Assembly: GCA_965197745.1 (NCBI GenBank)
Contig: CBDANS010000007.1
Coordinates: 1,216,001-1,280,000 of the forward strand
Reading direction: 5' to 3'
Length of the DNA stretch: 64,000 nucleotides
Source: Opitutales bacterium
GTDB taxonomy: Bacteria; Verrucomicrobiota; Verrucomicrobiia; Opitutales; PNEW01
This document shows positions 42,903 through 56,939 of this stretch, one piece after another (the stretch's first letter is position 1; every line of letters begins with the position of its first letter). A model generated the notes under the pieces. It was not told the DNA's origin. It did not search any database and saw nothing but the letters and a program-made list of their open reading frames with translations. Made by a program: the position numbers and the translations under genes.

Positions 42903-44026
42903 GTAACTTTTTAATATCCTGTGGTGGTACGGGTGGACATTTAGCTCCCGGTATTTCGCTCGCCGAGCGTTTAATTGAGCATGGTCACCAGTGTTGGCTT
43001 ATCATCAGCAAAAAAGAAGTGGATTCACGTTTAACAAGGGACTATCCTCAACTGGACTTTGTGCGAGCACCCGGAGCAGCATTCTCCTTTAATCCATGGC
43101 GCTTCGTAAAATTTTTTATACAGCAGTTTCAGTTGCTCTTATTTTCATTTAGACTTTTGCGTAAAACCCGTCCTGATACGATAGTGGCCTTTGGTGGGTT
43201 TACTTCTGTTGGCATTGCCATAGCTGGATTTATTCGCGGTTGTCCGGTAGCGATACATGAAGCTAATCGAAAACCTGGGAAAGCCACCCGCTATCTGCGA
43301 AGTTTGGCCAATCGCTTATACCTCCCTGAAGGAGTGCAATTAGCAGGTGTTCCCCTCCAGTCCATTAAACACTTTGGTTACCCATTGCGTAAGGGGATTC
43401 GACGTCTGCCCAAAGAATCGGCTCGTAGAAAAATGGGAATAGATGTTAAAGGTAAATTACTGGTTATTATGGGTGGCAGTCAGGGTGCCCAGGCCTTGAA
43501 CGAGTGGGTCAACATGCATTTCGAAAAACTGGGTGCTGAAGGGATCAGCGTTTACTGCGTAACCGGTTTGGGAAAAGGGAACAACGGTGTCTTTGAATAC
43601 CGCTCGGATAATGGTGAAGCGGTCAAAGCTTATTACACAACCTTTTGCGATAACATGGGTCACCTGCTGTCATCCGCAGACCTTGTTCTTTCCCGCGCCG
43701 GGGCGGGTTCGATTGCCGAATTAGTGCAATGCCATGTTCCATCGGCACTCGTCCCATACCCCTATGCTACGGACAATCACCAACTGGCAAATGCACGATT
43801 CCTGGAACAGTTGGGGTGTAGTGTAACAATAGAACAGGAGAATATGGGTGATCTTTTTGGTGAAGTGATTGAGCTCATTTATAACGATTGGCTTTTAGAC
43901 AAATTCCGTCAAAACCTTCAACGTTTAAACCGGGGGAATGGGGCGGAGCTTATCGCCAATGATCTTGAAGTAATCTGTGAAGAACATATCCGGAAACATC
44001 GACCCAAGGAAGAAGTGTCAGCATGA
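42899..44026 (+). CDS. murG: Lipid II GlcNAc transferase MurG
   Basis: GGTGGH, HEAN, GGSQGA, RAGAGS, HQLANA. Confidence 0.95.
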   Translation: MSNFLISCGGTGGHLAPGISLAERLIEHGHQCWLIISKKEVDSRLTRDYPQLDFVRAPGAAFSFNPWRFVKFFIQQFQLLLFSFRLLRKTRPDTIVAFGGFTSVGIAIAGFIRGCPVAIHEANRKPGKATRYLRSLANRLYLPEGVQLAGVPLQSIKHFGYPLRKGIRRLPKESARRKMGIDVKGKLLVIMGGSQGAQALNEWVNMHFEKLGAEGISVYCVTGLGKGNNGVFEYRSDNGEAVKAYYTTFCDNMGHLLSSADLVLSRAGAGSIAELVQCHVPSALVPYPYATDNHQLANARFLEQLGCSVTIEQENMGDLFGEVIELIYNDWLLDKFRQNLQRLNRGNGAELIANDLEVICEEHIRKHRPKEEVSA

Positions 44027-46332
44027 GAAATATATACATGATTGGCATTGGGGGAATGGGCATGGCGCCGCTCGCACTCTATTTACAAAAAGGCGGTTAT
44101 CTTATCAGTGGATACGACGATAATATCAGTGAACCTGTTCGCTCTCTTCTTCTCGAACACGAAGTAAATGTATTTTCCGAAACCGAGTTAAGCGATGAGA
44201 TAGAAGGGGTTGTCTACTCGAGCGCAGTGGCCAGGAACCATCCCTGTTACGAGGCGGCCTGCGTACGCGGGGTGCCATTATTGAAACGAGGTTCAATGCT
44301 CGCCCGTGCCGTAGCTGATAAGAAACTCATCGCCGTCGTCGGCAGTCACGGCAAAACAACCACTGCGGGCATGCTTATTTCTGCTCTTGAAAAAGAAAGT
44401 TTTAAATTTGGCTATATCCTGGGGGCCTTATTTAAAAATAATAGCAGCATGCCTGCGCGTTATGACAAAAATAGTGAATGGGTAATAGCGGAGATTGATG
44501 AGAGTGATGGAACAATAAATGAGTTTTCACCGGAAATAACGCTGACTACTAACCTCGATTGGGATCATCCCGATCAATATCCAGATCCGGGTGAGTTAGA
44601 AGATACCTTTGGTAGACTTTTTCAGCGCACTAAAAAAGCTGTTTTTTTCCCCTCTTGTAACAATTTATTTAAGCAACTGCCTGAAAATAATATTACCTGT
44701 GAGTTAATCAGATTTGGTGAAGGAGGCGATTATGCGGGTAATATATTGGAAGCTGACTGCCAGAGTATATTATTAAAATTAGAAGGCCGGTCTGATAAGC
44801 ATGAAGTAAAGGTGCCGGCGCCTGGTAACTTTAATGCCGCCAATGCCCTGGGTGCTCTCGCTGTCACGCATTATCTTACAGCGCATCTCAACATTAATAC
44901 CCTCAGTTCTTTTCCCGGCATTGTGCGTCGCCAGACGATTCTATATAATAGCCCTCAATTACTTATTTATGAAGATTATGCGCATCACCCTGGAGAGATT
45001 GCGGCGCTGATTGATTTTATCCGTGAATCATATTCCGGTTTTCGGGTAATCGTTGTCTTCCAACCCCATCGCTACACACGCACGCTTCAATACAAGGAGG
45101 CATTTGCCCAAGCCCTCAAAAAAGCGGATGTCATTTTCTTAATGGATGTTTATCCCGCGAATGAAAATCCAATCGAGGGGGGGGCAAGTATTGATCTTTT
45201 AAAGCTTCTGCCTGAGGTTTCCCCACCTAAAATATTAACCGATGTTGATGAGCTCGATGACAGTATCTCGAGTCAATTAATAGATCCAAGTGTCTTACTC
45301 TTTATCGGAGCGGGAGATATATCGCAGTGGGCTGAAATATACGTGTCGAGGAAAGCGAAGCAAACACCTGAAAAGGTTAAGAGAAAAAAGACATCAACTA
45401 GAGATGAAAAATGGTGGGAAAACATATCTCAGAATTTCAATTCGGAGACACGGTTGTCCTGTTTTGAACCATTAGCTGACAAAACAACAATACGCGTGGG
45501 AGGAAGCACACGGTACTATGCTGAACCGGCATCAGAGAATGATCTGTCGCTCCTTATTAAAGAAGCAAAAAAAAATAGGGTTGCCCTTTTTTTTATTGGC
45601 CGTGGATCAAACCTTATCGTCCCGGACGAAGGTTTTCAGGGGCTGGTCATACGGCTCAACCACAAGTATTGGAAACAAATAAAATCCCTCGGTGAAGGTC
45701 GGCTTTGGGTGGGAGCCGGGGTGCGTTTAAAAAGGATTTGCGGGGAATCGGTCAAACTGGGCATGGGTGGCTTCGAGTTTCTCGAAGGCATACCCGGGAC
45801 ATTGGGAGGATCCCTGCGTATGAATGCGGGTGCCATGGGAGGATGGATGTTTGACATCGTGGAATCGGTGCACCGTGTAACGCTTGACGGCACCTTGGAA
45901 AAATTAAGTCGTGAAGATATCCATGTCGGTTACCGGGAATGTGAAGAGTTGAAAGAGGCAATAGCGATTGGGGCGATTTTACGCGCCACTTCAAGCGCTG
46001 AGGCAGGGGCCATTAGGGAGAAGGTTGAATCGTTCTCCAGCTTGCGCAAGGAGAGCCAGCCACGCGAGCCAAGCGCAGGGTGTATTTTTAAAAACCCGAA
46101 AGGGGGTTACGCCGGACAGCTCATTGATGAATTGGGCTTAAAAGGAAAACAGATAGGAGCCGCTCAAGTATCAAATATACATGGAAATTTTATAATTAAC
46201 AAGGGGGGCGCAACGAGCAGAGATGTAATTTCATTGATAAAAGAAGTTCGCCAAGAGGTTAAAATACATAGGGGTTTTGAATTGCAGCCCGAAGTTCTCC
46301 TGATGGGCAAGAATTGGAGCGAGGTGTTATGA
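44023..46332 (+). CDS. murC: MurC-MurB fusion protein
   Basis: N-terminal IGIGGMGM, GSHGKTT, DYAHHP, FQPHRY (MurC); C-terminal GRGSNL, GIPGTLGG, MNAGA, SAGCIFKNP, HGNFIIN (MurB). Confidence 0.95.
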   Translation: MRNIYMIGIGGMGMAPLALYLQKGGYLISGYDDNISEPVRSLLLEHEVNVFSETELSDEIEGVVYSSAVARNHPCYEAACVRGVPLLKRGSMLARAVADKKLIAVVGSHGKTTTAGMLISALEKESFKFGYILGALFKNNSSMPARYDKNSEWVIAEIDESDGTINEFSPEITLTTNLDWDHPDQYPDPGELEDTFGRLFQRTKKAVFFPSCNNLFKQLPENNITCELIRFGEGGDYAGNILEADCQSILLKLEGRSDKHEVKVPAPGNFNAANALGALAVTHYLTAHLNINTLSSFPGIVRRQTILYNSPQLLIYEDYAHHPGEIAALIDFIRESYSGFRVIVVFQPHRYTRTLQYKEAFAQALKKADVIFLMDVYPANENPIEGGASIDLLKLLPEVSPPKILTDVDELDDSISSQLIDPSVLLFIGAGDISQWAEIYVSRKAKQTPEKVKRKKTSTRDEKWWENISQNFNSETRLSCFEPLADKTTIRVGGSTRYYAEPASENDLSLLIKEAKKNRVALFFIGRGSNLIVPDEGFQGLVIRLNHKYWKQIKSLGEGRLWVGAGVRLKRICGESVKLGMGGFEFLEGIPGTLGGSLRMNAGAMGGWMFDIVESVHRVTLDGTLEKLSREDIHVGYRECEELKEAIAIGAILRATSSAEAGAIREKVESFSSLRKESQPREPSAGCIFKNPKGGYAGQLIDELGLKGKQIGAAQVSNIHGNFIINKGGATSRDVISLIKEVRQEVKIHRGFELQPEVLLMGKNWSEVL

Positions 46333-49430: not shown

Positions 49431-50702
49431 ATGCAAAGCGAAAATTTTGTAAACCCCAATAAGACGTTCAGTGGAGAAGTCAGTGAGGCGACATTCCGAA
49501 TCAAGATAATTGGTCTCGGGGGAGCCGGTAACAATGCCGTAGATCGGATCAAACTGGACCATCTCGATCGCGTCGATCTTGCTGTCGTTAATACTGACAG
49601 TAAGGTTTTGAATGCGTCATTGATCGATGAAAAGGTCATGATTGGTCGAGAGATTACAAGAGGTCTCAGTGCGGGAGGTGATGCCGATATCGGCAGACGT
49701 GCCGCGGAAGCTGATCGAGAGCCTTTACTGCAGCTCGTCAACGGTATTGATATAGTATTTATTATTGCAGGATTGGGAGGAGGAACCGGAAGCGGAGCAG
49801 CGCCGATATTGGCTGAAATTGCCGCCAATCAAGGGGCATTGGTAATCGCTTTTGTTACCTTGCCTTTTACTAATGAAGGTATTCGTCGCCATAATCAGGC
49901 GGAAGATAGCCTCGCTCAACTAAGATCCGTATGTCATGCTGTTATTCCCTTGCCTAACGATATATTACTGCAGCAGGTGGAGGAGACTGCTACGGTTCTC
50001 GATGCTTTCACCCTGGCTGACGAGTGGATATACCGGGGGGTCCATTCCATATGGTCTTTGATCAATAAAACCGGGCTCATCAATGTCGATTTTGCCACTT
50101 TAAAAAATGCTTTTGAAAATCGGGGAGGGAAAACACTATTTGGTTTGGGCTACGGTGAAAAAGATAATTACGCCGATAAGGCACTCGATGATCTGAAGCT
50201 ATGCCCGTTGTTGCATACCCCTGAATTTTCACGTCGAGCAGATTCTCTCATTATAAATATAGTTGGGGGAACGGATCTTACGATTAACAAAGTGAACGAA
50301 ATTATGACCGTTGTCGGAGAACAGTTCGGGAGTAAGGATAATATCGTTCTCGGTGCGTATATTGATGAAAGCAAACAAAATAGTTTAAGTATCACCGTCC
50401 TGGGGACGACCAATCTGGATATTATGAAAAGACGATATCCAACAAATAAATCCATCTATAATCCAGTAGAGAAAAATCAGGCAAGGTCTTCAGAAAAAAA
50501 TAATGAAGAAAATTATACCCCTTCCGTGCATGCTTCCAAAAAAAATCAACACCCTAAAAAGGGAGATAAGCAGGAAGAATTTACCTTTTCCAATAATGGG
50601 GATCAACGCGGCTATTTCGATAAAACGGAGCGTAATCTGTATGATGGTGAAGATCTTGACGTGCCAACTTATCTCAGGCGGGGAATTAAAATAAATCTGT
50701 AA
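49431..50702 (+). CDS. ftsZ: Cell division protein FtsZ
   Basis: GLGGAGNN, NTD, GLGGGTGSG, C-terminal DLDVPTYLRR. Confidence 0.96.
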   Translation: MQSENFVNPNKTFSGEVSEATFRIKIIGLGGAGNNAVDRIKLDHLDRVDLAVVNTDSKVLNASLIDEKVMIGREITRGLSAGGDADIGRRAAEADREPLLQLVNGIDIVFIIAGLGGGTGSGAAPILAEIAANQGALVIAFVTLPFTNEGIRRHNQAEDSLAQLRSVCHAVIPLPNDILLQQVEETATVLDAFTLADEWIYRGVHSIWSLINKTGLINVDFATLKNAFENRGGKTLFGLGYGEKDNYADKALDDLKLCPLLHTPEFSRRADSLIINIVGGTDLTINKVNEIMTVVGEQFGSKDNIVLGAYIDESKQNSLSITVLGTTNLDIMKRRYPTNKSIYNPVEKNQARSSEKNNEENYTPSVHASKKNQHPKKGDKQEEFTFSNNGDQRGYFDKTERNLYDGEDLDVPTYLRRGIKINL

Positions 50703-50749
50703 GGTTTTAGAGATTAGAGACGGATCTCCTTTTTTAGTGTTCATTTGCA

Positions 50750-50779
50750 TTGATATAATTCTTCAAAAGCTTCTATAAC
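50750..50779 (+). promoter_or_regulatory. Putative sigma70 promoter for purS, possibly giving a leaderless transcript
   Basis: TTGATA-18 nt-TATAAC, ending 7 nt before the GTG start. Confidence 0.45.
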
Positions 50780-50786
50780 AATCCGA

Positions 50787-51032
50787 GTGAAGATCATTGT
50801 TTACGTAACCCCGAAAAAAAATGTTCTCGACCCCCAGGGCGCCGCAGTAGGGCAAGCGATGAAAAGTCTTGGGCATAAGGCAGTCGCTAATGTCCGTGTG
50901 GGCAAAACCATTGAATTCGAGATTCAGGGTGAGGATACAACTGAATTTCGCGCGTCCCTTGATAAACTGTGCAATGACCTGCTCAGTAATCCTATCATCG
51001 AGGATTATCGCTACGAATTAGTCGATAATTAG
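50787..51032 (+). CDS. purS: FGAM synthase subunit PurS
   Basis: VLDPQG, VRVGK, LLSNPIIEDY. Confidence 0.93.
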   Translation: MKIIVYVTPKKNVLDPQGAAVGQAMKSLGHKAVANVRVGKTIEFEIQGEDTTEFRASLDKLCNDLLSNPIIEDYRYELVDN

Positions 51033-51071
51033 CGTTATGCCGGAACCTTTTCGGGATAGAACAGTCCCCCT

Positions 51072-51308
51072 CTATCCCATCTTCGTCTGCGTCCATTTGG
51101 GGCTTAGTCGGTGACGAAGAGGTAGACGAAGATTGAGTCCTTATTATAGTAACCTTTGATCTAGACCCCCTCAACGGTCACGACGGAGCGTGACCCTCCA
51201 GAAAAATAATAATAATGGAGGGACGCGCTCCGTCGCGTCCGTTGAGAAGTTTGAACGATAATCTCAGATTTATTCCACCCAATAGGACGAAGACGAAGAT
51301 AGGGATAG
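51072..51308. repeat. Nested palindromic cassette (REPIN/BIME-like): outer GACGAA-rich inverted arms enclosing an inverted REP pair
   Basis: Outer arms 51072-51101 and 51278-51308; inner arms 51170-51200 and 51216-51246 (GGAGGGACGCGCTCCGTCGCGTCC type). Confidence 0.85.
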
Positions 51309-51386
51309 GTTTAAATACACCTCCGGTGTTCAGTCCCCGACATTAAAGCTTTACTTGCCGTCTCGACAATTTTTACCCTAAGCAAG

Positions 51387-52439
51387 ATGAGTAAACTTGA
51401 GGGCATATTTGTACCCAATATCGTTCCCTTTGACGAAAGTGGAAGAATAAATGAGGATGAATTGCGCCGCCAGACTAACTGGCTGATTGATAAAGGAGTC
51501 TCTGGGCTCTACCCCAATGGGAGTTCGGGTGAATTTATCCGGCTCAGTTTCGATGAGCGCAAGCGGATAATCGATATCATGAGCAGTGAAGTAAAGGGGC
51601 GTGTCCCTATCCTGGCAGGGGGAGCAGAAGCCAATCTGGACATGATCCTTGAAGCCTGTGAAACTTACGCTGATTACGGTTGCGCGGCTGTCTCTGTCAC
51701 CGGCCCCTACTACTACAAAGTCAGCCAGGAAAGTATTGAAGAACTCTTTCGGGAGATAGCGGCAAAATCACCGATTGGGATTGTTATGTATAATATCCCT
51801 CAGTTTTCCAATGAAATCAGCGTCCCCGTCGTCAAACGCCTGGCACTCGATTGCCCCAATATTATTGGGATTAAGGATAGCAGTCGAGACATGCCGCGGT
51901 TTATAAATACGCTTAATGAAATTAAACCTCAACGTCCTGATTTCAGCGTCCTTGTCGGGTGTGAGGAAATACTCTTCTCCACTCTTATGATGGGCGGTGA
52001 CGGAGGGACGATCGCTACCTCTGGGGTGGTCCCTGAAGCTGTAATGAAACTCTATAACTGCTTTCTCTCAAAAGAATGGGATGAAGCGAGGCGTATTCAG
52101 TTTAAGCTTTTAGATCTCATTAACACCATGCTTTATGCGCCTGATTTTCCCCATGGTTTTCGCGTTGGATACGAATTGAGAGGTTTCAATATGGGAGGAT
52201 CACGCTACGTGCTTTCTCCACGTGAGAAAGAGGAAATGGAAAATATCCGTTCAAAAGTCGCCTGCCTCCTTGCGGAGTGTGGATTTGAAGAAGCGGCTAG
52301 TAAATGTCAAACACCCCAATCGGACCTCGCGCGACCGTATCAAGGTAAAACATTAGCAGATAAACAATCCCCCTCGGGTAAGACCATTGACGTGGACAAA
52401 ATAGTGGACGAGGTGTTGCGCAGTCTGGGCAAGAAATAG
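51387..52439 (+). CDS. DapA/NanA (DHDPS)-family class I aldolase with a C-terminal BMC encapsulation-peptide-like tail
   Basis: NGSSGEF, PYYY, YNIP, GIKDSS Schiff-base Lys; extra linker followed by IDVDKIVDEVLRSLGKK. Confidence 0.88.
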   Translation: MSKLEGIFVPNIVPFDESGRINEDELRRQTNWLIDKGVSGLYPNGSSGEFIRLSFDERKRIIDIMSSEVKGRVPILAGGAEANLDMILEACETYADYGCAAVSVTGPYYYKVSQESIEELFREIAAKSPIGIVMYNIPQFSNEISVPVVKRLALDCPNIIGIKDSSRDMPRFINTLNEIKPQRPDFSVLVGCEEILFSTLMMGGDGGTIATSGVVPEAVMKLYNCFLSKEWDEARRIQFKLLDLINTMLYAPDFPHGFRVGYELRGFNMGGSRYVLSPREKEEMENIRSKVACLLAECGFEEAASKCQTPQSDLARPYQGKTLADKQSPSGKTIDVDKIVDEVLRSLGKK

Positions 52440-52462
52440 TTTCTCTCAAAGCAGATTCTCAG

Positions 52463-53104
52463 ATGGCTAAATCCTCTAAAGCGACCACTGCCCTGGGTTT
52501 TGCAGAGGTTCCCTTCTGGAGTATCAGCGCGGTCGTAGCGGATACTATGGTTAAAGAGGTCGGGGTCAAACTACTTGGTTTAGATACTACTACTCTTGAG
52601 AGTATATTAATTCGCGTTTCCGGTGAAGTATCTGATGTTAATGCCTCCCTGCAAACAGCTGTTGATTATGGGGATGTATTGGGGGTTAATGTGCTTACCG
52701 GGATCGTAACTTCCCCGGCAGAGGGATTTGAGGGGGCCGTCAATTATGCAAATAGCATCAACCCCCTCTATGGAGCGCGCGAACAGTTTTTACCAGACGA
52801 TTATAAATTAACACAGAAACAAAATATGAATGATAAACAACATGCATTAGGATTCCTCGAGACGCAGGGGCTGATCGCAGTATTGGAAGCGACAGATGCG
52901 ATGCTCAAAGCTGCTAATGTCACCCTTGTGGGGAAAGAGAAAATTGGAGCTGCTTACGTTACGGTGGTGATCAGGGGCGACGTTGCCGCGGTCACTGCGG
53001 CAGTAGAGGCAGGTAGAGAAGCGGCTAATGGATTAGGGAAAATTATCGCTTCGCATGTAATTGCGCGTCCCCATGCCGATCTCGCGGCGCTACTTCCTGC
53101 TTAA
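52463..53104 (+). CDS. Bacterial microcompartment shell protein with two BMC domains
   Basis: C-terminal canonical ALGFLETQG...DAMLKAANV...IRGDVAAV...HVIARPH; N-terminal divergent ALGFAEV...ADTMVK...SGEVSDV. Confidence 0.92.
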   Translation: MAKSSKATTALGFAEVPFWSISAVVADTMVKEVGVKLLGLDTTTLESILIRVSGEVSDVNASLQTAVDYGDVLGVNVLTGIVTSPAEGFEGAVNYANSINPLYGAREQFLPDDYKLTQKQNMNDKQHALGFLETQGLIAVLEATDAMLKAANVTLVGKEKIGAAYVTVVIRGDVAAVTAAVEAGREAANGLGKIIASHVIARPHADLAALLPA

Positions 53105-53214
53105 ACACTGAGTTCATACGATAAGCGTTTTTCTTATTGCGCGATAGGATCTCAGAATTCTATTTTCATCGATGCAGAGATATTCGGTTAGTTGATTCAG
53201 TTCAGGCTTATGAA

Positions 53215-54369
53215 ATGGCTAAGTATATTTTTGCAGCAACAGTCATTTGCGTTTATTGTGTATCTCATGGTTCAATGATAGAGTCGCATTCTATTAATCA
53301 GAAGGATCTTTTTGTGAGCGGTAGTGAAGGTTATCACACTTACCGCATCCCCGCCTTACTGGTATCAAAAAAAGGAACAGTGATGGCTTTTTGTGAAGGG
53401 CGCAAAACGGGACGAAGCGATACTGGAGATATTGATATGCTTGTCAAACGTTCTGAGGACGGTGGTAAAACCTGGAGTAAACAACAGGTGATCTGGGACG
53501 ACGCAGCAAATGTCTGTGGCAATCCCTGTCCGGTTTTAGATAAAGATACAGGAACCATCTGGCTCTTGATGACCTGGAATCTTGGGACAGATCGTGAGAG
53601 TGAGATCATCGCCCAGACAAGCGATGACACGCGTCGAATTTATGTTACATCCTCCAATGACGATGGTTTGACATGGGAAACGCCAAAGGAGATCACGGCG
53701 ACGGTTAAGGAACCCGGATGGACCTGGTATGCAACCGGGCCCTGTACGGGAATTCAGATTCAACAGGGAGAAAATAAAGGCCGCCTTATAATACCCTGTG
53801 ACCATATAGAAGCTGAGACAATGAAATACTATTCACATGTTATCTATTCGGACGATCATGGCGTGTCGTGGAAATTAGGGGGAACGACACCGGTTGATCA
53901 GGTGAATGAATGCCAGGCGGTGGAACTTGCGAACGGGAGTATTATGCTCAATATGCGTAATTACGATCGAAGCAAAAATTCGCGCGCCGTATCTAAAAGT
54001 GATGATGGCGGCATAACATGGGGTCGATTAAACCGAGACCCTGTACTTATTGAACCGATATGCCAGGCGAGTATTATTCGTTACACCCAGATCCCTCACC
54101 AGGAAAAAAACCGAATCCTTTTCAGTAATCCCGCCAGTAAAACAGATCGCGAGAGAATGACCGTCAGGCTCAGTTACGACGAGGGTAAATCTTGGGCAGT
54201 GTCAAAATTACTCCATGAGGGTCCCTCAGCTTATTCTGATCTGGCGATTTTACCTCAGGGTAAGATCGCCTGCTTATATGAAAGCGGGGAAACTCATCCC
54301 TATGAGAAAATCACTTTGGCCAGCTTTGATCTGTCTTGGTTGACGGATGGGGAGGATGTTCTCGAATAG
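53215..54369 (+). CDS. Exo-alpha-sialidase (GH33)
   Basis: YRIP motif; five Asp-boxes (SEDGGKTW, SNDDGLTW, SDDHGVSW, SDDGGITW, SYDEGKSW); NEC, NMR, SAYS; start uncertain (53137, 53215 or 53275). Confidence 0.9.
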   Translation: MAKYIFAATVICVYCVSHGSMIESHSINQKDLFVSGSEGYHTYRIPALLVSKKGTVMAFCEGRKTGRSDTGDIDMLVKRSEDGGKTWSKQQVIWDDAANVCGNPCPVLDKDTGTIWLLMTWNLGTDRESEIIAQTSDDTRRIYVTSSNDDGLTWETPKEITATVKEPGWTWYATGPCTGIQIQQGENKGRLIIPCDHIEAETMKYYSHVIYSDDHGVSWKLGGTTPVDQVNECQAVELANGSIMLNMRNYDRSKNSRAVSKSDDGGITWGRLNRDPVLIEPICQASIIRYTQIPHQEKNRILFSNPASKTDRERMTVRLSYDEGKSWAVSKLLHEGPSAYSDLAILPQGKIACLYESGETHPYEKITLASFDLSWLTDGEDVLE

Positions 54370-55405
54370 TGTCATGGCCAGGATCAAAGACCATCGTGAG
54401 TACCCACAAGGTAAAGTCCCTTTGATTGATGTCGAGGGGACTGCGTATGACTGCGGTGTCATGCTCGGATATGCCTGGCAGGAGTCTTTACAGTTTAGGG
54501 CAAGTCAGATTGTTCCCGGTTCGATTCCGTGGTGGAAAGATAACAAATTCAGTCGGCTCATAAAAAAATATATGCCGCATATTCCCGATGTATTTCTGGG
54601 GATGGCTAAAGGATCGGGGTTAAATGAAAATCAGATAGGAACTATCGGTCAGGTAGAAGATGACGGGTGCACTTCTTTCGCGATTCAACCTTCCGCGTCC
54701 CTCGACGGCATCCCTATCTCGGGACAATCTAAGGACACCGATGCCTTCCGCCAGTTTCAATTTCAGGTGTTGCGCATGAAAATGAGTAACGCGCCATCAG
54801 CATTAACGCTAACTTACCCGGGTTGGCTTTTCGGACACGGGTTTGTTGAAGGCCGTTGTTCAATATTTCGCAATGCCCTTTACGTTGACGATCCCAAGGG
54901 TGAGTTGCCCTATTCAGCCTGGGGATTGATTGCCTTGCACTGCTCTTGCGTGGAAGAGGTGATAGAAATAACTAAACAATATCGCGTTGAATTATGCGCT
55001 CACTGTACTGTTGCCGATGAGAAGGGTGGGGTTGCGGGAATTGAAATCACGCCCCATGGAATAGGTATTCTTAAACCCAAGCGTGGAATATATACCCATG
55101 CTAATTGTGTAGTCTCAAATAAACGCCTGGCGAAGACTGAAAAATTCGGACAGTTTACTCGTGAAAATTCGATTATGCGTGAGAATGCACTGCGCAAGAA
55201 TCTGGAACCCAACAGCGGTCGATTAACCGCGCAGTTAGCTTACTGCAGCTTTTGTGATTTCAACGACTTTCCCGACAGCATCGAACGCCATGTCGGAGAC
55301 ATCGGCCTTACTACCGCCGTCGTCATCGCCGAGCCAACCCTGGGTAAATTGCATGTCACCCGGGGCGCAGCTTCACGTAATTGGCCGGTAACTTACAGTT
55401 TGTAA
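54347..55405 (+). CDS. Peptidase C45 / acyl-CoA:6-APA acyltransferase-like Ntn hydrolase
   Basis: DGCTSFA autocleavage site, GQSKD, YTHAN; overlaps the sialidase stop. Confidence 0.82.
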   Translation: MGRMFSNSVMARIKDHREYPQGKVPLIDVEGTAYDCGVMLGYAWQESLQFRASQIVPGSIPWWKDNKFSRLIKKYMPHIPDVFLGMAKGSGLNENQIGTIGQVEDDGCTSFAIQPSASLDGIPISGQSKDTDAFRQFQFQVLRMKMSNAPSALTLTYPGWLFGHGFVEGRCSIFRNALYVDDPKGELPYSAWGLIALHCSCVEEVIEITKQYRVELCAHCTVADEKGGVAGIEITPHGIGILKPKRGIYTHANCVVSNKRLAKTEKFGQFTRENSIMRENALRKNLEPNSGRLTAQLAYCSFCDFNDFPDSIERHVGDIGLTTAVVIAEPTLGKLHVTRGAASRNWPVTYSL

Positions 55406-55445
55406 GCGGTGGGGGTTAAGAAGTGATCCGTTCATATTAAAGCTC

Positions 55446-55610
55446 CGTCTTCGTCAATTAATAACTATAAAATATAATTATACTTTTTTAGCGGCCACGA
55501 CGGAGCGTGGCCCTCCAGTAAAGAAGAAAAGGGAGGGCCACGCTCCGTCGTGGCCGCTCAAACCTATGAATCATTATATTAATGTGAATAACTGGCGGGA
55601 CGAAGAGTCA
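55446..55610. repeat. Second REPIN-like cassette with a perfect 27-bp inverted REP pair
   Basis: AGCGGCCACGACGGAGCGTGGCCCTCC (55490-55516) and its reverse complement (55532-55558), flanked by TCTTCGTC and GACGAAGA. Confidence 0.88.
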
Positions 55611-55650
55611 GTGGCTGGCTAAACTTTAAGGTATGATAATTGAAATAATA

Positions 55651-55856
55651 ATCTTCGTCTACGTCTGCCTCCTCGTCTTCGTCCGAGAATATAATCGACA
55701 AGATTAGTTATAAAAATTGCAACACAAGGTGGAGCGGGCTGTCCCAGCACGCTTTTTCAAATATAATTTAATCTAACGCGCTAGAAACAGCGCGTTCCAC
55801 CTATTATCGTTGTTAATAACAGGACGCAGACGAAGAGTCAGAGGCAGACGAAGAGG
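55651..55856. repeat. Third nested cassette: a different REP-like family inside GACGAA-type arms
   Basis: AGGTGGAGCGGGCTGTCCCAGCACGCT (55727-55753) and AACGCGCTAGAAACAGCGCGTTCCACCT (55775-55802); hexamer-repeat arms at 55652-55684 and 55822-55854. Confidence 0.75.
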
Positions 55857-55910
55857 ACTACTTGAACGAAGCTAATCGCCACGTATTCTGTCTACTCATC
55901 TCCCCCCTAC

Positions 55911-56939
55911 CTAGGCGTGAGCGGGGACGGTCTCTTTAACGAGTTCGACTAATTTATCCGCGTTGGGGAGATAAAAATTTTCCAATTCAGGTGAGAATGG
56001 CACCGGTGTGTGCGGAGGTGTAAGCATTTTTGGCGCTGCATTAAGACTGTCAAACGCCTTTGAGGAAGCGAGAGCGACAACATCCGTTGCAATGGAACAC
56101 CGTGGATTGTCTTCATCGACAACAATCAGATGCCCTGTTTTTCGCACTGAATTCAGAATCAATTCCTCGTCAAGCGGTGACATCGAACGGGGATCTACCA
56201 CTTCCACACTGATATCGTCCTGAGACAGTTTTTCGGCTGCTTCATAAGCGATAAGCACCATTTTAGAAAAAGCTACTATTGTTATATCGGTACCCTCGCG
56301 AACGACCTCTCCTTTTCCAATGGGGAGAAGATATTCTTCTTCGGGAACAGGTCCCTTGGTGTCATAGAGACCCTTGTGCTCGACAAAAATAACGAGATCG
56401 TCATCACGAATCGCGGATTTTAACAGGCCTTTAGCGTCATAGGGTGTTGATGGGGTAACCAGTTTTAACCCCGGAAGGTGTACGAGAAGTGAATGACAGG
56501 AATGTGAATGCTGGGCCGCGGCCTGAAAACCTCCCCCGATCATTGTTCGCATCACCATTGGGACCTTTGCTTTGCCCCCGAACATATAACGCATGGCCGA
56601 TGCCTGATTCATGATCTGATCAAGACAGAATCCAAGGAAATCGATAAACATTAATTCTACGATAGGTCGCATCCCGCTGGCCGCTGCACCCGCGGCGCAA
56701 CCGACAATGGCACCTTCAGTTATTGGAGTGTCTCGGACACGTGATTTCCCATATTTCCCAACCAGTCCCTTGGTAACACCGAACGGACCACCCCACGCAT
56801 CAAACTCATCTGGGGCTTCATTTTGCGCACCGCCCGCAATATCCTGTCCAAGGACAAAAACGCTTTCATCACGCGCCATTTCTTCATGCAACGCTTCATT
56901 GAGGGCTTGTCGGTATGTAACTTTTTTTCTATCGGCCAT
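55911..56939 (-). CDS. acoB: TPP-dependent dehydrogenase E1 beta subunit (AcoB-like)
   Basis: GQDIAGGA...DAWGGPFGVTKGL insertion typical of AcoB; DTPITE; AAQHS. Confidence 0.75.
   Translation of the reverse strand: MADRKKVTYRQALNEALHEEMARDESVFVLGQDIAGGAQNEAPDEFDAWGGPFGVTKGLVGKYGKSRVRDTPITEGAIVGCAAGAAASGMRPIVELMFIDFLGFCLDQIMNQASAMRYMFGGKAKVPMVMRTMIGGGFQAAAQHSHSCHSLLVHLPGLKLVTPSTPYDAKGLLKSAIRDDDLVIFVEHKGLYDTKGPVPEEEYLLPIGKGEVVREGTDITIVAFSKMVLIAYEAAEKLSQDDISVEVVDPRSMSPLDEELILNSVRKTGHLIVVDEDNPRCSIATDVVALASSKAFDSLNAAPKMLTPPHTPVPFSPELENFYLPNADKLVELVKETVPAHA

Follow-up and report, generated by a model that had tools for sequence, protein, structure and literature searches.

A DHDPS-family aldolase with a candidate encapsulation peptide and its adjacent BMC-T shell protein: a two-gene satellite cassette of the PVM microcompartment in Verrucomicrobiota

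The locus described here raises the question of why an aldolase gene stands beside a single gene for a shell protein of bacterial microcompartments (BMC), and whether the sialidase and hydrolase genes that follow belong to the same system. It is located in a stretch of 64,000 nt (the window in what follows, always meant at its full length) of Opitutales bacterium GCA_965197745.1, contig CBDANS010000007.1, which is contig C7 of the genome designated G000 (4.45 Mb, 7 contigs, 92% complete). Four co-directional open reading frames (ORFs) encode a DHDPS-family aldolase, a BMC-T shell protein, a sialidase-like protein and a C45-family hydrolase (Table 1); the gap between aldolase and BMC-T is 23 nt, and the sialidase and C45 ORFs overlap by 23 nt. 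An earlier note, made from the sequence without database searches, had described this arrangement at the same positions, with which the family matches agree, and had proposed a new four-gene microcompartment module, in which the aldolase would either release lactaldehyde from 2-keto-3-deoxy-fuconate or -rhamnonate, or cleave sialic, nonulosonic or 3-deoxy-D-manno-octulosonic (KDO) type acids set free by the sialidase. The answer reached here is narrower. The aldolase and BMC-T genes are a widespread two-gene satellite cassette of the PVM fucose/rhamnose microcompartment known from Planctomycetes and Verrucomicrobia, and it is probable that they provide this compartment with an encapsulated 2-keto-3-deoxy-fuconate/rhamnonate aldolase and a tile of its own.

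Relatives of the aldolase were searched in one genome per GTDB species, where 247 were found and the best 80 kept, and the loci were scored with all ORFs and with tblastn. The 80 relatives are 57-70% identical to the window aldolase, except for one sister with 91% (L097), and their records belong nearly all to Verrucomicrobiota (the carrier groups being Opitutales, Luteolibacter, Akkermansiaceae, Limisphaerales, Chthoniobacter and Kiritimatiellia), with a few metagenome-assembled genomes under other labels. In 59 of these 80 loci the gene immediately downstream, in the same orientation, is BMC-T, recognized in 54 by ORF comparison and in 5 by tblastn (two of the latter genes are cut by a contig end); the other 21 comprise two loci with BMC-T remnants, one without room for the gene and 18 that lack it. 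The reverse test was made on metagenome contigs with an alignment of 34 BMC-T orthologs as the query (467 relatives found, best 80 kept), and the aldolase was located just upstream of BMC-T in 66 of the 71 loci having at least 300 bp of upstream sequence. This adjacency is far beyond chance. In the 32 genome loci without recognisable pathway genes, no gene family except the aldolase, BMC-T and their antisense shadow ORFs is common to more than six loci. Genes of a main PVM locus adjoin the aldolase in 4/80 loci, and in two of them (L063 and L072) the order aldolase, BMC-T, phosphotransacylase (PTAC), BMC-H and onward is kept on one strand.

The distribution of the other two genes is different. 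Together with the aldolase/BMC-T pair, sialidase and C45 genes were encountered only in the sister locus L097 (1/80 genome loci) and in L125 and L126 (2/80 metagenome loci), whose aldolase, where present, is 89% identical to that of the window. The four-gene order is a feature of one genus-level lineage, and since sialidase and C45 are confined to it while the pair is conserved, the conserved unit is the two-gene cassette; the sialidase and the C45 protein are lineage-specific neighbours outside of it, with no demonstrated role in it. Of the linkage suspected in the earlier note the aldolase/BMC-T half has therefore stood and the sialidase half has not, and the four-gene module is not supported.

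Among solved structures the top relative of the sialidase-like protein is the Micromonospora sialidase 1EUR, with which it can be aligned over residues 54-402, the YRIP motif being identical and the SxDxGxTW Asp-boxes repeated, so that the six-bladed propeller catalytic domain, RIP motif and Asp-boxes of GH33 are all recognized. The likelier start is the ATG at 53215, and the hydrophobic N-terminus after M27, read by eye from the translation, indicates that the protein is probably exported. The C45 protein gave in addition a Pfam AAT match (E 2.4e-5); no homologs at E <= 1e-30 were found in 400 other genomes of the phylum, the one further match, a partial paralog in G000 (C6:685759-686388), has 39% identity over residues 148-352, and from this the gene looks like a recent acquisition of the window lineage.

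A compartment in which acids of the sialic, nonulosonic or KDO type, set free by the adjacent sialidase, are cleaved is considered extremely unlikely. The GH33 gene begins only 32 nt after BMC-T (110 nt with the 53215 ATG as start) and no terminator is predicted in the gap, L097, L125 and L126 have the same four-gene order, and the sialidase appears, from its motifs, catalytically intact; against these points stand the restriction of the linkage to one genus-level lineage, the absence of any other sialidase among the neighbours in the census of 80 loci, and an aldolase which scores far below the cut-offs of the nanA models (TIGR00683, 119.9 vs 382; NF003164, 143.6 vs 281) and has the same catalytic motifs as its orthologs in fucose operons. 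The cleavage products of nonulosonates are hexosamines or hexoses and not short aldehydes, and they are ill-suited to a core built around a CoA-acylating aldehyde dehydrogenase (AldDH). The apparent export of the sialidase also speaks against such a compartment. A scan of positions 50600-56000 for promoters and terminators gave counts (9 vs 8.5 and 6 vs 4.8 in shuffles) that are the same as chance.

The cassette is a guest of a compartment encoded elsewhere in the genome. When the main-locus proteins of G000 were used in tblastn, no BMC-P, AldDH or PTAC was found in the window, the sole match being BMC-T. The main BMC locus lies on contig C6 (~1321262-1328623), with the order PduL-type PTAC, BMC-H, BMC-H, acetate kinase, BMC-H, BMC-P, AldDH, BMC-P, BMC-P, class II aldolase, and dehydrogenase of the lactate/malate dehydrogenase (LDH/MDH) family; its shell set is thus three BMC-H and three BMC-P, its core (PF00171, PF06130, PF00871, PF00056/PF02866) forms a single co-directional block, and the class II aldolase matches PF00596 with E 5.6e-44. 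The PVM microcompartment is reportedly the subject of Erbilgin et al. 2014. Because the main locus has the make-up given by Axen et al. 2014 (PMC4207490, in part) and Sutter et al. 2021 (PMC8217296, in part) for the compartment of L-fucose and L-rhamnose breakdown via lactaldehyde, the host compartment is of the PVM type. Satellite loci are defined in the same two works as distal loci with an insufficient shell set (BMC-H/T only or BMC-P only) and a main locus elsewhere in the genome; the window on C7 has BMC-T alone and the main locus is on C6, and the window locus is a satellite of the PVM BMC. The earlier note was right in reading the window as a satellite and in looking for further shell genes and a main locus in the genome, and a genome devoid of other shell genes, which would have refuted it, is not what was found; the word "new", however, claims too much, the compartment being a known type and its tile already listed as "PVM (sat)".

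No match to a DeoR regulator appeared among the ORFs scanned around the main locus, where no search aimed at DeoR was made. L-fucose isomerase FucI (PF02952) was not detected in G000 or in the sister genome G401, nor RhaA (PF06134) in G000, although both genomes carry the PVM locus with its class II aldolase. Just upstream of the main locus, on the opposite strand, there is a gene cluster (L009:840-6014, corresponding to C6:1312840-1318014 of G000) with an enolase-superfamily dehydratase (top NCBIfam match galactonate dehydratase, 285 bits vs cut-off 311), a 223-aa ORF without annotation, a beta-eliminating lyase, a DHDPS paralog lacking the tail and a PhyH dioxygenase, which could represent another sugar-acid or hydroxy-amino-acid route beside the compartment genes.

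How the aldolase might enter the shell is suggested by its C-terminus. In the ortholog alignments a conserved barrel is followed by a linker of varying length and sequence and then by a conserved terminal motif, [DE]V[DE]xIVxxV[ML]xxL, carried by 77 of the 80 orthologs (74 with the strict pattern and 3 with one substitution), the remainder being two variants and one sequence without it. The AlphaFold2 model, made with 54 sequences, has a mean pLDDT (predicted local distance difference test) of 88.8; the TIM barrel is confident to about residue 306, the linker falls to block means of 57 and 49, and a helix is predicted at residues 336-348 of 350, with a hydrophobic moment of 0.78. In G000, AldDH and PTAC have similar helices at their N-termini and the class II aldolase has one at its C-terminus, in each case the end expected for an encapsulation peptide. 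In an ungapped BLOSUM62 scan of the 1,902,300 13-residue windows of all G000 ORFs, with only the tails of three relatives as the query, the tail of the window aldolase ranks 1st and the AldDH N-terminal segment 7th, with unrelated ORFs scoring between them. A 13-residue hidden Markov model built from the three tails had no discriminating power, and the 2 matches of the tail regular expression among 13,292 ORFs show only the rarity of the string, as the expression was derived from those same sequences.

More is learned from homologs in different genomes. The tail is absent from the 315-aa DHDPS paralog beside the main locus (L009:4134-5081) and from distant homologs in G297, G174 and G202. Close orthologs in the 400 other genomes of the phylum number eight (59-64% identity); all 7 of those from BMC-bearing genomes carry the tail, and the ortholog of G249, a genome 99% complete with 0 PF00936 hits, has 315 aa and ends right after the barrel. 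In G033, which belongs to the same genus as G249, three BMC-H hits were obtained and the ortholog carries the tail. Tail presence tracks BMC presence as expected of a targeting peptide, the contrast being a single one. With a terminal amphipathic helix, a poorly conserved linker and absence in non-BMC homologs (one close BMC-less ortholog), the tail has the features of encapsulation peptides and is regarded as a candidate of this kind, as the earlier note had supposed; on these grounds the aldolase would be encapsulated. A complex prediction of the BMC-T trimer with aldolase residues 296-350 scored 0.00 in two runs without controls and carries no weight either way.

It could be argued that the aldolase remains in the cytosol, the tail serving oligomerisation or regulation and BMC-T being merely co-regulated. 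Short amphipathic helices are common, unrelated ORFs outscore the AldDH peptide in the tail scan, the case for encapsulation consists of sequence and a model, and there are the 18 aldolase loci without an adjacent BMC-T. Such a reading is nevertheless very unlikely, for it must accommodate a tail with all the sequence hallmarks of encapsulation peptides that matches the N-terminus of the G000 AldDH, that is lost in the BMC-less G249 ortholog and is absent from paralogs, as well as a pair that heads the main PVM operon in L063 and L072.

The BMC-T partner consists of two PF00936 domains in the standard, non-permuted order within one chain of the usual ~200-235 aa, which defines the T^s type, and G000 has no other tandem BMC gene. 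Its top relative among solved structures is 6NER, an engineered tandem deposited as "BMC-H tandem fusion protein" (E 3.6e-49, full-length). The pore loop of domain 2, GKEKIGAAYV, and the inter-domain NPLYGGR are invariant or nearly so among the 34 orthologs. In PduT-like BMC-T proteins a conserved cysteine of the central pore binds a 4Fe-4S cluster; as no cysteine is conserved among the 34 orthologs, a PduT-like iron-sulfur site is unlikely, and this candidate identity was rejected, the match to PduT being weak as well (E ~1e-16). The reciprocal linkage with the aldolase suggests that the tile serves either as a pore reserved for the keto-deoxy acid and pyruvate or for docking.

In the shell-protein tree of Sutter 2021 there is a BMC-T^s clade named "T_pvm", whose members, for example from Pirellula, are typed "PVM (sat)" (PMC8217296, in part); the window BMC-T fits this clade in length and label, the comparison being one of descriptions and not of sequences. 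The satellite shell tile of the PVM compartment is thus already catalogued, and what appears to be new is its link to the aldolase. Full-text literature searches returned no paper in which a DHDPS-family aldolase is joined to a microcompartment, and such an enzyme is unmentioned in the main texts and readable supplements of Axen 2014 and Sutter 2021, the locus diagrams of the latter lying outside this coverage and possibly showing the aldolase.

Distant BMC-T proteins (33-35% identity) were also noticed in a different BMC locus of two Verrucomicrobial genomes, L043 (G117:C22) and L044 (G060:C1); in the latter the gene is accompanied by three BMC-H genes and one for a long class II aldolase. 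Common to the two loci are a 2-hydroxyacid dehydrogenase and an HpcH/HpaI aldolase of 600 aa to which two cupin domains are fused. Aldolases of the HpcH type can split keto-deoxy-rhamnonate too, and these loci may be a parallel solution.

As to the aldolase itself, its fold and family motifs fit a class I DHDPS/NAL aldolase (PF00701): GSSGE at residues 45-49, Y135 in YNIP and K163 in GIKDSS (161-166), the last including the KDSS that the earlier note had pointed out. K163, Y135 and G45-E49 are invariant in 54 orthologs, and K163 is, by its position in the motif, presumably the catalytic Schiff-base lysine. The protein stays below the curated cut-offs of the NCBIfam models for dapA, nanA, 2-keto-3-deoxygluconate (KDG) aldolase and KdgD, so that identity as DapA (TIGR00674, 143.5 vs 206.15) was rejected like that as NanA. 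Solved structures of DapA, YagE (a 2-keto-3-deoxygalactonate, KDGal, aldolase), KDG aldolase and NanA are about equally similar to it (E 3e-33 to 1e-24), and public databases give only generic names to its relatives. The subclade of the window has the active-site variants GCEE/KDSS in place of the GWEE/KDTS found elsewhere. G000 has at least four DHDPS-family genes; among them are a 292-aa paralog at C6:274124-275002 and a tail-less 314-aa paralog beside Amidohydro_2, a thiamine pyrophosphate enzyme, a PhyH dioxygenase and an insertion sequence element (L209:8435-10345, corresponding to C6:1185435-1187345).

A substrate is pointed to by the gene neighbours. All neighbours within 6.5 kb at the 80 loci were clustered without seeds and then annotated with Pfam, and the most frequent was an Amidohydro_2 lactonase (31/80 loci, mostly directly upstream of the cassette), followed by a short-chain dehydrogenase/reductase (SDR, 20/80), an enolase-superfamily dehydratase MR_MLE of FucD type (15/80), an SSF transporter (13/80), RhaM mutarotase (10/80), a UxaA/altronate-type dehydratase (7/80), RhaT (6/80), GH29 alpha-L-fucosidase (5/80), GH95 (4/80) and PTAC (4/80). 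Two further families, CoA-transferase family III (8/80) and a MaoC-like dehydratase (7/80), recur beside the cassette as a CoA branch, for example in L081 and L119. The MR_MLE neighbour matches the L-fuconate dehydratase structures 1YEY/2HXT (E 2e-103) and also human ENOSF1. For the lactonase there is a single relative in the PDB, 4DLF/4DNM, which we take to be the Burkholderia L-fucono-1,5-lactonase, and a single NCBIfam match, L-fucono-1,5-lactonase. The SDR is closest to HSD17B14, the mammalian L-fucose dehydrogenase (PMC13406643, in part). Within the window subclade (GCEE and KDSS), the aldolase gene of G033 is immediately followed by one for a GH78 alpha-L-rhamnosidase, and the aldolase of the BMC-less G249 is surrounded by an SDR, two lactonase types and a dehydratase-like gene. 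An aldolase for L-2-keto-3-deoxyfuconate (L-KDF) which gives pyruvate and L-lactaldehyde is an established enzyme of the so-called route 1 (PMC11199699, in part). Judged from this context, the cassette is most likely the last step of an oxidative 6-deoxy-hexose route, the aldehyde-releasing reaction of which would have been moved into the PVM shell. The lactaldehyde alternative of the earlier note fits the gene contexts of the relatives; together with the satellite and the tail it is the part of that interpretation which survives.

Several observations weigh against this reading and have to be kept in view. Pathway genes accompany the pair in only 39 of the 80 loci, or in 31 of the 57 with at least 3 kb upstream, and 18 of the 80 aldolases have no BMC-T beside them; the lactonase and SDR neighbours remain below the cut-offs of the NCBIfam fucose models (126.9 vs 400 and 160.8 vs 300, respectively). 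In G000, at 92% completeness, close orthologs of the two dehydratases (FucD-type and UxaA-type) and of the lactonase were not found, the top matches having 36% identity over ~150 residues, 27% and 31%, respectively, and the two lactonase paralogs of this genome lie in unrelated, non-fucose neighbourhoods, one of them beside another DHDPS paralog. The complete chromosome of the sister has a FucD-like gene which is only 37% identical (full-length) and outside any fucose cluster; its region is missing from the G000 assembly. The window aldolase departs from the consensus of at least 90% at 10 positions, with its catalytic motifs intact, and the domain-1 loop of the window-lineage BMC-T reads DTTTLES against the family consensus ETTGNEN. 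The natural control for the tail consists of a single genome without BMC genes, and genomes that are related do not count as independent. Likeness to L-KDF aldolase is a matter of gene context and not of comparison with a characterised L-KDF aldolase sequence, and the whole case is computational. A new substrate of the window aldolase (neofunctionalisation) was considered and is not claimed, 10 divergent positions with intact catalytic motifs being too little for it.

Part of the same evidence would suit an aldolase that is encapsulated in the PVM compartment and acts on a different keto-deoxy acid: 2-keto-3-deoxy-L-galactonate or 2-keto-3-deoxy-D-arabinonate (yielding glyceraldehyde or glycolaldehyde), KDG/KDGal, or, in the window lineage, some substrate that has nothing to do with fucose. 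Genes for the preceding steps of fucose oxidation were not found in G000, the enzyme is almost equidistant from the DapA, YagE, KDG aldolase and NanA structures and reaches no NCBIfam cut-off, its subclade has active-site variants of its own, and fucose dehydrogenases of the HSD17B14 type also accept D-arabinose and L-galactose (PMC13406643, in part). This possibility is judged unlikely, as those contexts that do exist are specific for 6-deoxy-hexoses (FucD, GH29, GH95, RhaT, RhaM, and GH78 in G033), the host is a lactaldehyde-processing PVM compartment, and the catalytic motifs of the window aldolase are unchanged.

If the 6-deoxy-hexonate reading is followed, the sequence of events could be as follows. 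The class I aldolase would be carried into the compartment by its C-terminal encapsulation peptide, similar to those of three main-locus enzymes (AldDH, PTAC and the class II aldolase), and inside the shell it would split 2-keto-3-deoxy-6-deoxy-L-hexonate into pyruvate and L-lactaldehyde. By context the substrate would be L-2-keto-3-deoxyfuconate in most relatives, L-2-keto-3-deoxyrhamnonate being equally possible in the window subclade. Lactaldehyde would then be handled by AldDH, PTAC and acetate kinase of the PVM core, with the LDH/MDH-like dehydrogenase recycling NADH. The BMC-T would be a tile dedicated to this add-on, most likely as the pore for the anionic keto-deoxy acid and pyruvate.

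Table 1. Genes of the locus and segments of the aldolase, with positions in the window
Feature	Position	Strand	Size or residues	Assignment
DHDPS-family aldolase	51387-52439	+	350 aa	Pfam DHDPS, E 3.5e-55, residues 4-290; ~60-aa tail beyond
Aldolase catalytic TIM-barrel, class I, DHDPS/NAL family	51387..52304	+	residues 1-306	Pfam DHDPS, AlphaFold2
Aldolase flexible linker	52305..52391	+	residues ~307-335	no conservation in alignments, low pLDDT
Aldolase C-terminal amphipathic helix, candidate encapsulation peptide	52392..52439	+	residues 336-348, then two residues and stop	
BMC-T shell protein	52463-53104	+	213 aa	two BMC domains PF00936, E 6.8e-36
GH33 exo-alpha-sialidase-like protein	53137-54369	+	410 aa	BNR_2, E 2.5e-40; 1EUR, E 9e-57
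C45-family Ntn autoproteolytic acyltransferase/hydrolase	54347-55405	+	352 aa	NCBIfam C45_proenzyme (NF040521), 103.7 bits, cut-off 85

The surroundings of the four genes are of another kind: on the 5' side there are a cell-division cluster and purS, and on the 3' side, on the opposite strand, the E1/E2 genes of a 2-oxoacid dehydrogenase. A 769-aa ORF at 44023-46332 (+), read by eye from the translation, has a MurC-like N-terminus and a MurB-like C-terminus, which suggests a fused murC-murB in the cell-division cluster.

The wider meaning of the cassette depends on how far its proposed function holds. PVM organelles in hundreds of Verrucomicrobial species may be dual-entry devices, a proposal whose chances we would call even: besides the phosphorylative route of the class II aldolase they would possess a class I aldolase equipped with a targeting peptide and a substrate-specific BMC-T pore of its own, through which keto-deoxy-fuconate or -rhamnonate would be imported to be split within the shell. 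If this is true, a DHDPS-family protein would for the first time be seen as the signature enzyme of a BMC, and the pair would amount to an expansion kit of enzyme and tile that is natural and portable. In the genus of the window this kit would have been separated from the operon for fucose oxidation, and it stands beside an apparently exported sialidase and a rare C45 protein, and a substrate shift may have occurred there. PVM compartments are central to the use of fucose- and rhamnose-rich algal polysaccharides, such as fucoidan, by marine and soil Verrucomicrobia and Planctomycetes. In the model of PMC8857213 (in part) the compartment is fed only through fuculose 1-phosphate, and in PMC13668718 fucose catabolism is scored as either a phosphorylative or a lactaldehyde-free oxidative pathway. 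An encapsulated keto-deoxy-acid aldolase would represent a third, hybrid route, with oxidation in the cytosol followed by aldehyde release inside the shell, and would alter the scoring of such genomes. It would also be a compact natural example of a compartment extended by one tagged enzyme and one matching tile.

The systems to which the cassette can be compared each share a part of it. The known PVM BMC is like that of G000, with the class II aldolase as signature enzyme and with AldDH, PduL-type PTAC, acetate kinase and an LDH/MDH-like dehydrogenase, and lactaldehyde is the aldehyde handled; the class II signature enzyme described for it requires a metal and takes fuculose or rhamnulose 1-phosphate as substrate, whereas the cassette is proposed to add a second, class I, tailed aldolase for a sugar acid that is not phosphorylated. 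Encapsulation peptides of metabolosome cargo, reportedly treated by Aussignargues et al. 2015, resemble the aldolase tail in being terminal amphipathic helices of ~15 residues behind a poorly conserved linker and in being absent from non-BMC homologs; in the present enzyme family the peptide is predicted from sequence and model. L-KDF aldolase (FucH) belongs to the same Schiff-base DHDPS/NAL class, and its set of partner genes recurs around the cassette in relatives, the known enzyme being encoded with fucose dehydrogenase, lactonase and fuconate dehydratase (PMC11199699, in part). A similar operon make-up is seen in the fucose-induced PR2 locus of Campylobacter, with a dapA-like gene, uxaA, SDR, amidohydrolase and transporter (PMC12566272, in part). 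The partner enzymes of the known L-KDF aldolases are co-encoded and those of G000 were not found, and the hosts of the known enzymes have no reported compartment and the enzymes no reported tail or shell partner, whereas the cassette has both. An organisational parallel is offered by the "EUT module" satellites of Sutter 2021, EutABC with an EutL-type BMC-T, in which a signature enzyme and its own BMC-T likewise form a distal add-on; they are thought to extend the main compartment to an alternative substrate, the tile being proposed as the entry pore (PMC8217296, in part). The cassette differs from them in having a class I aldolase instead of ethanolamine ammonia-lyase, a T^s tile instead of the permuted T^sp and a PVM host, and it would add no new aldehyde but deliver the one that the main pathway already yields.

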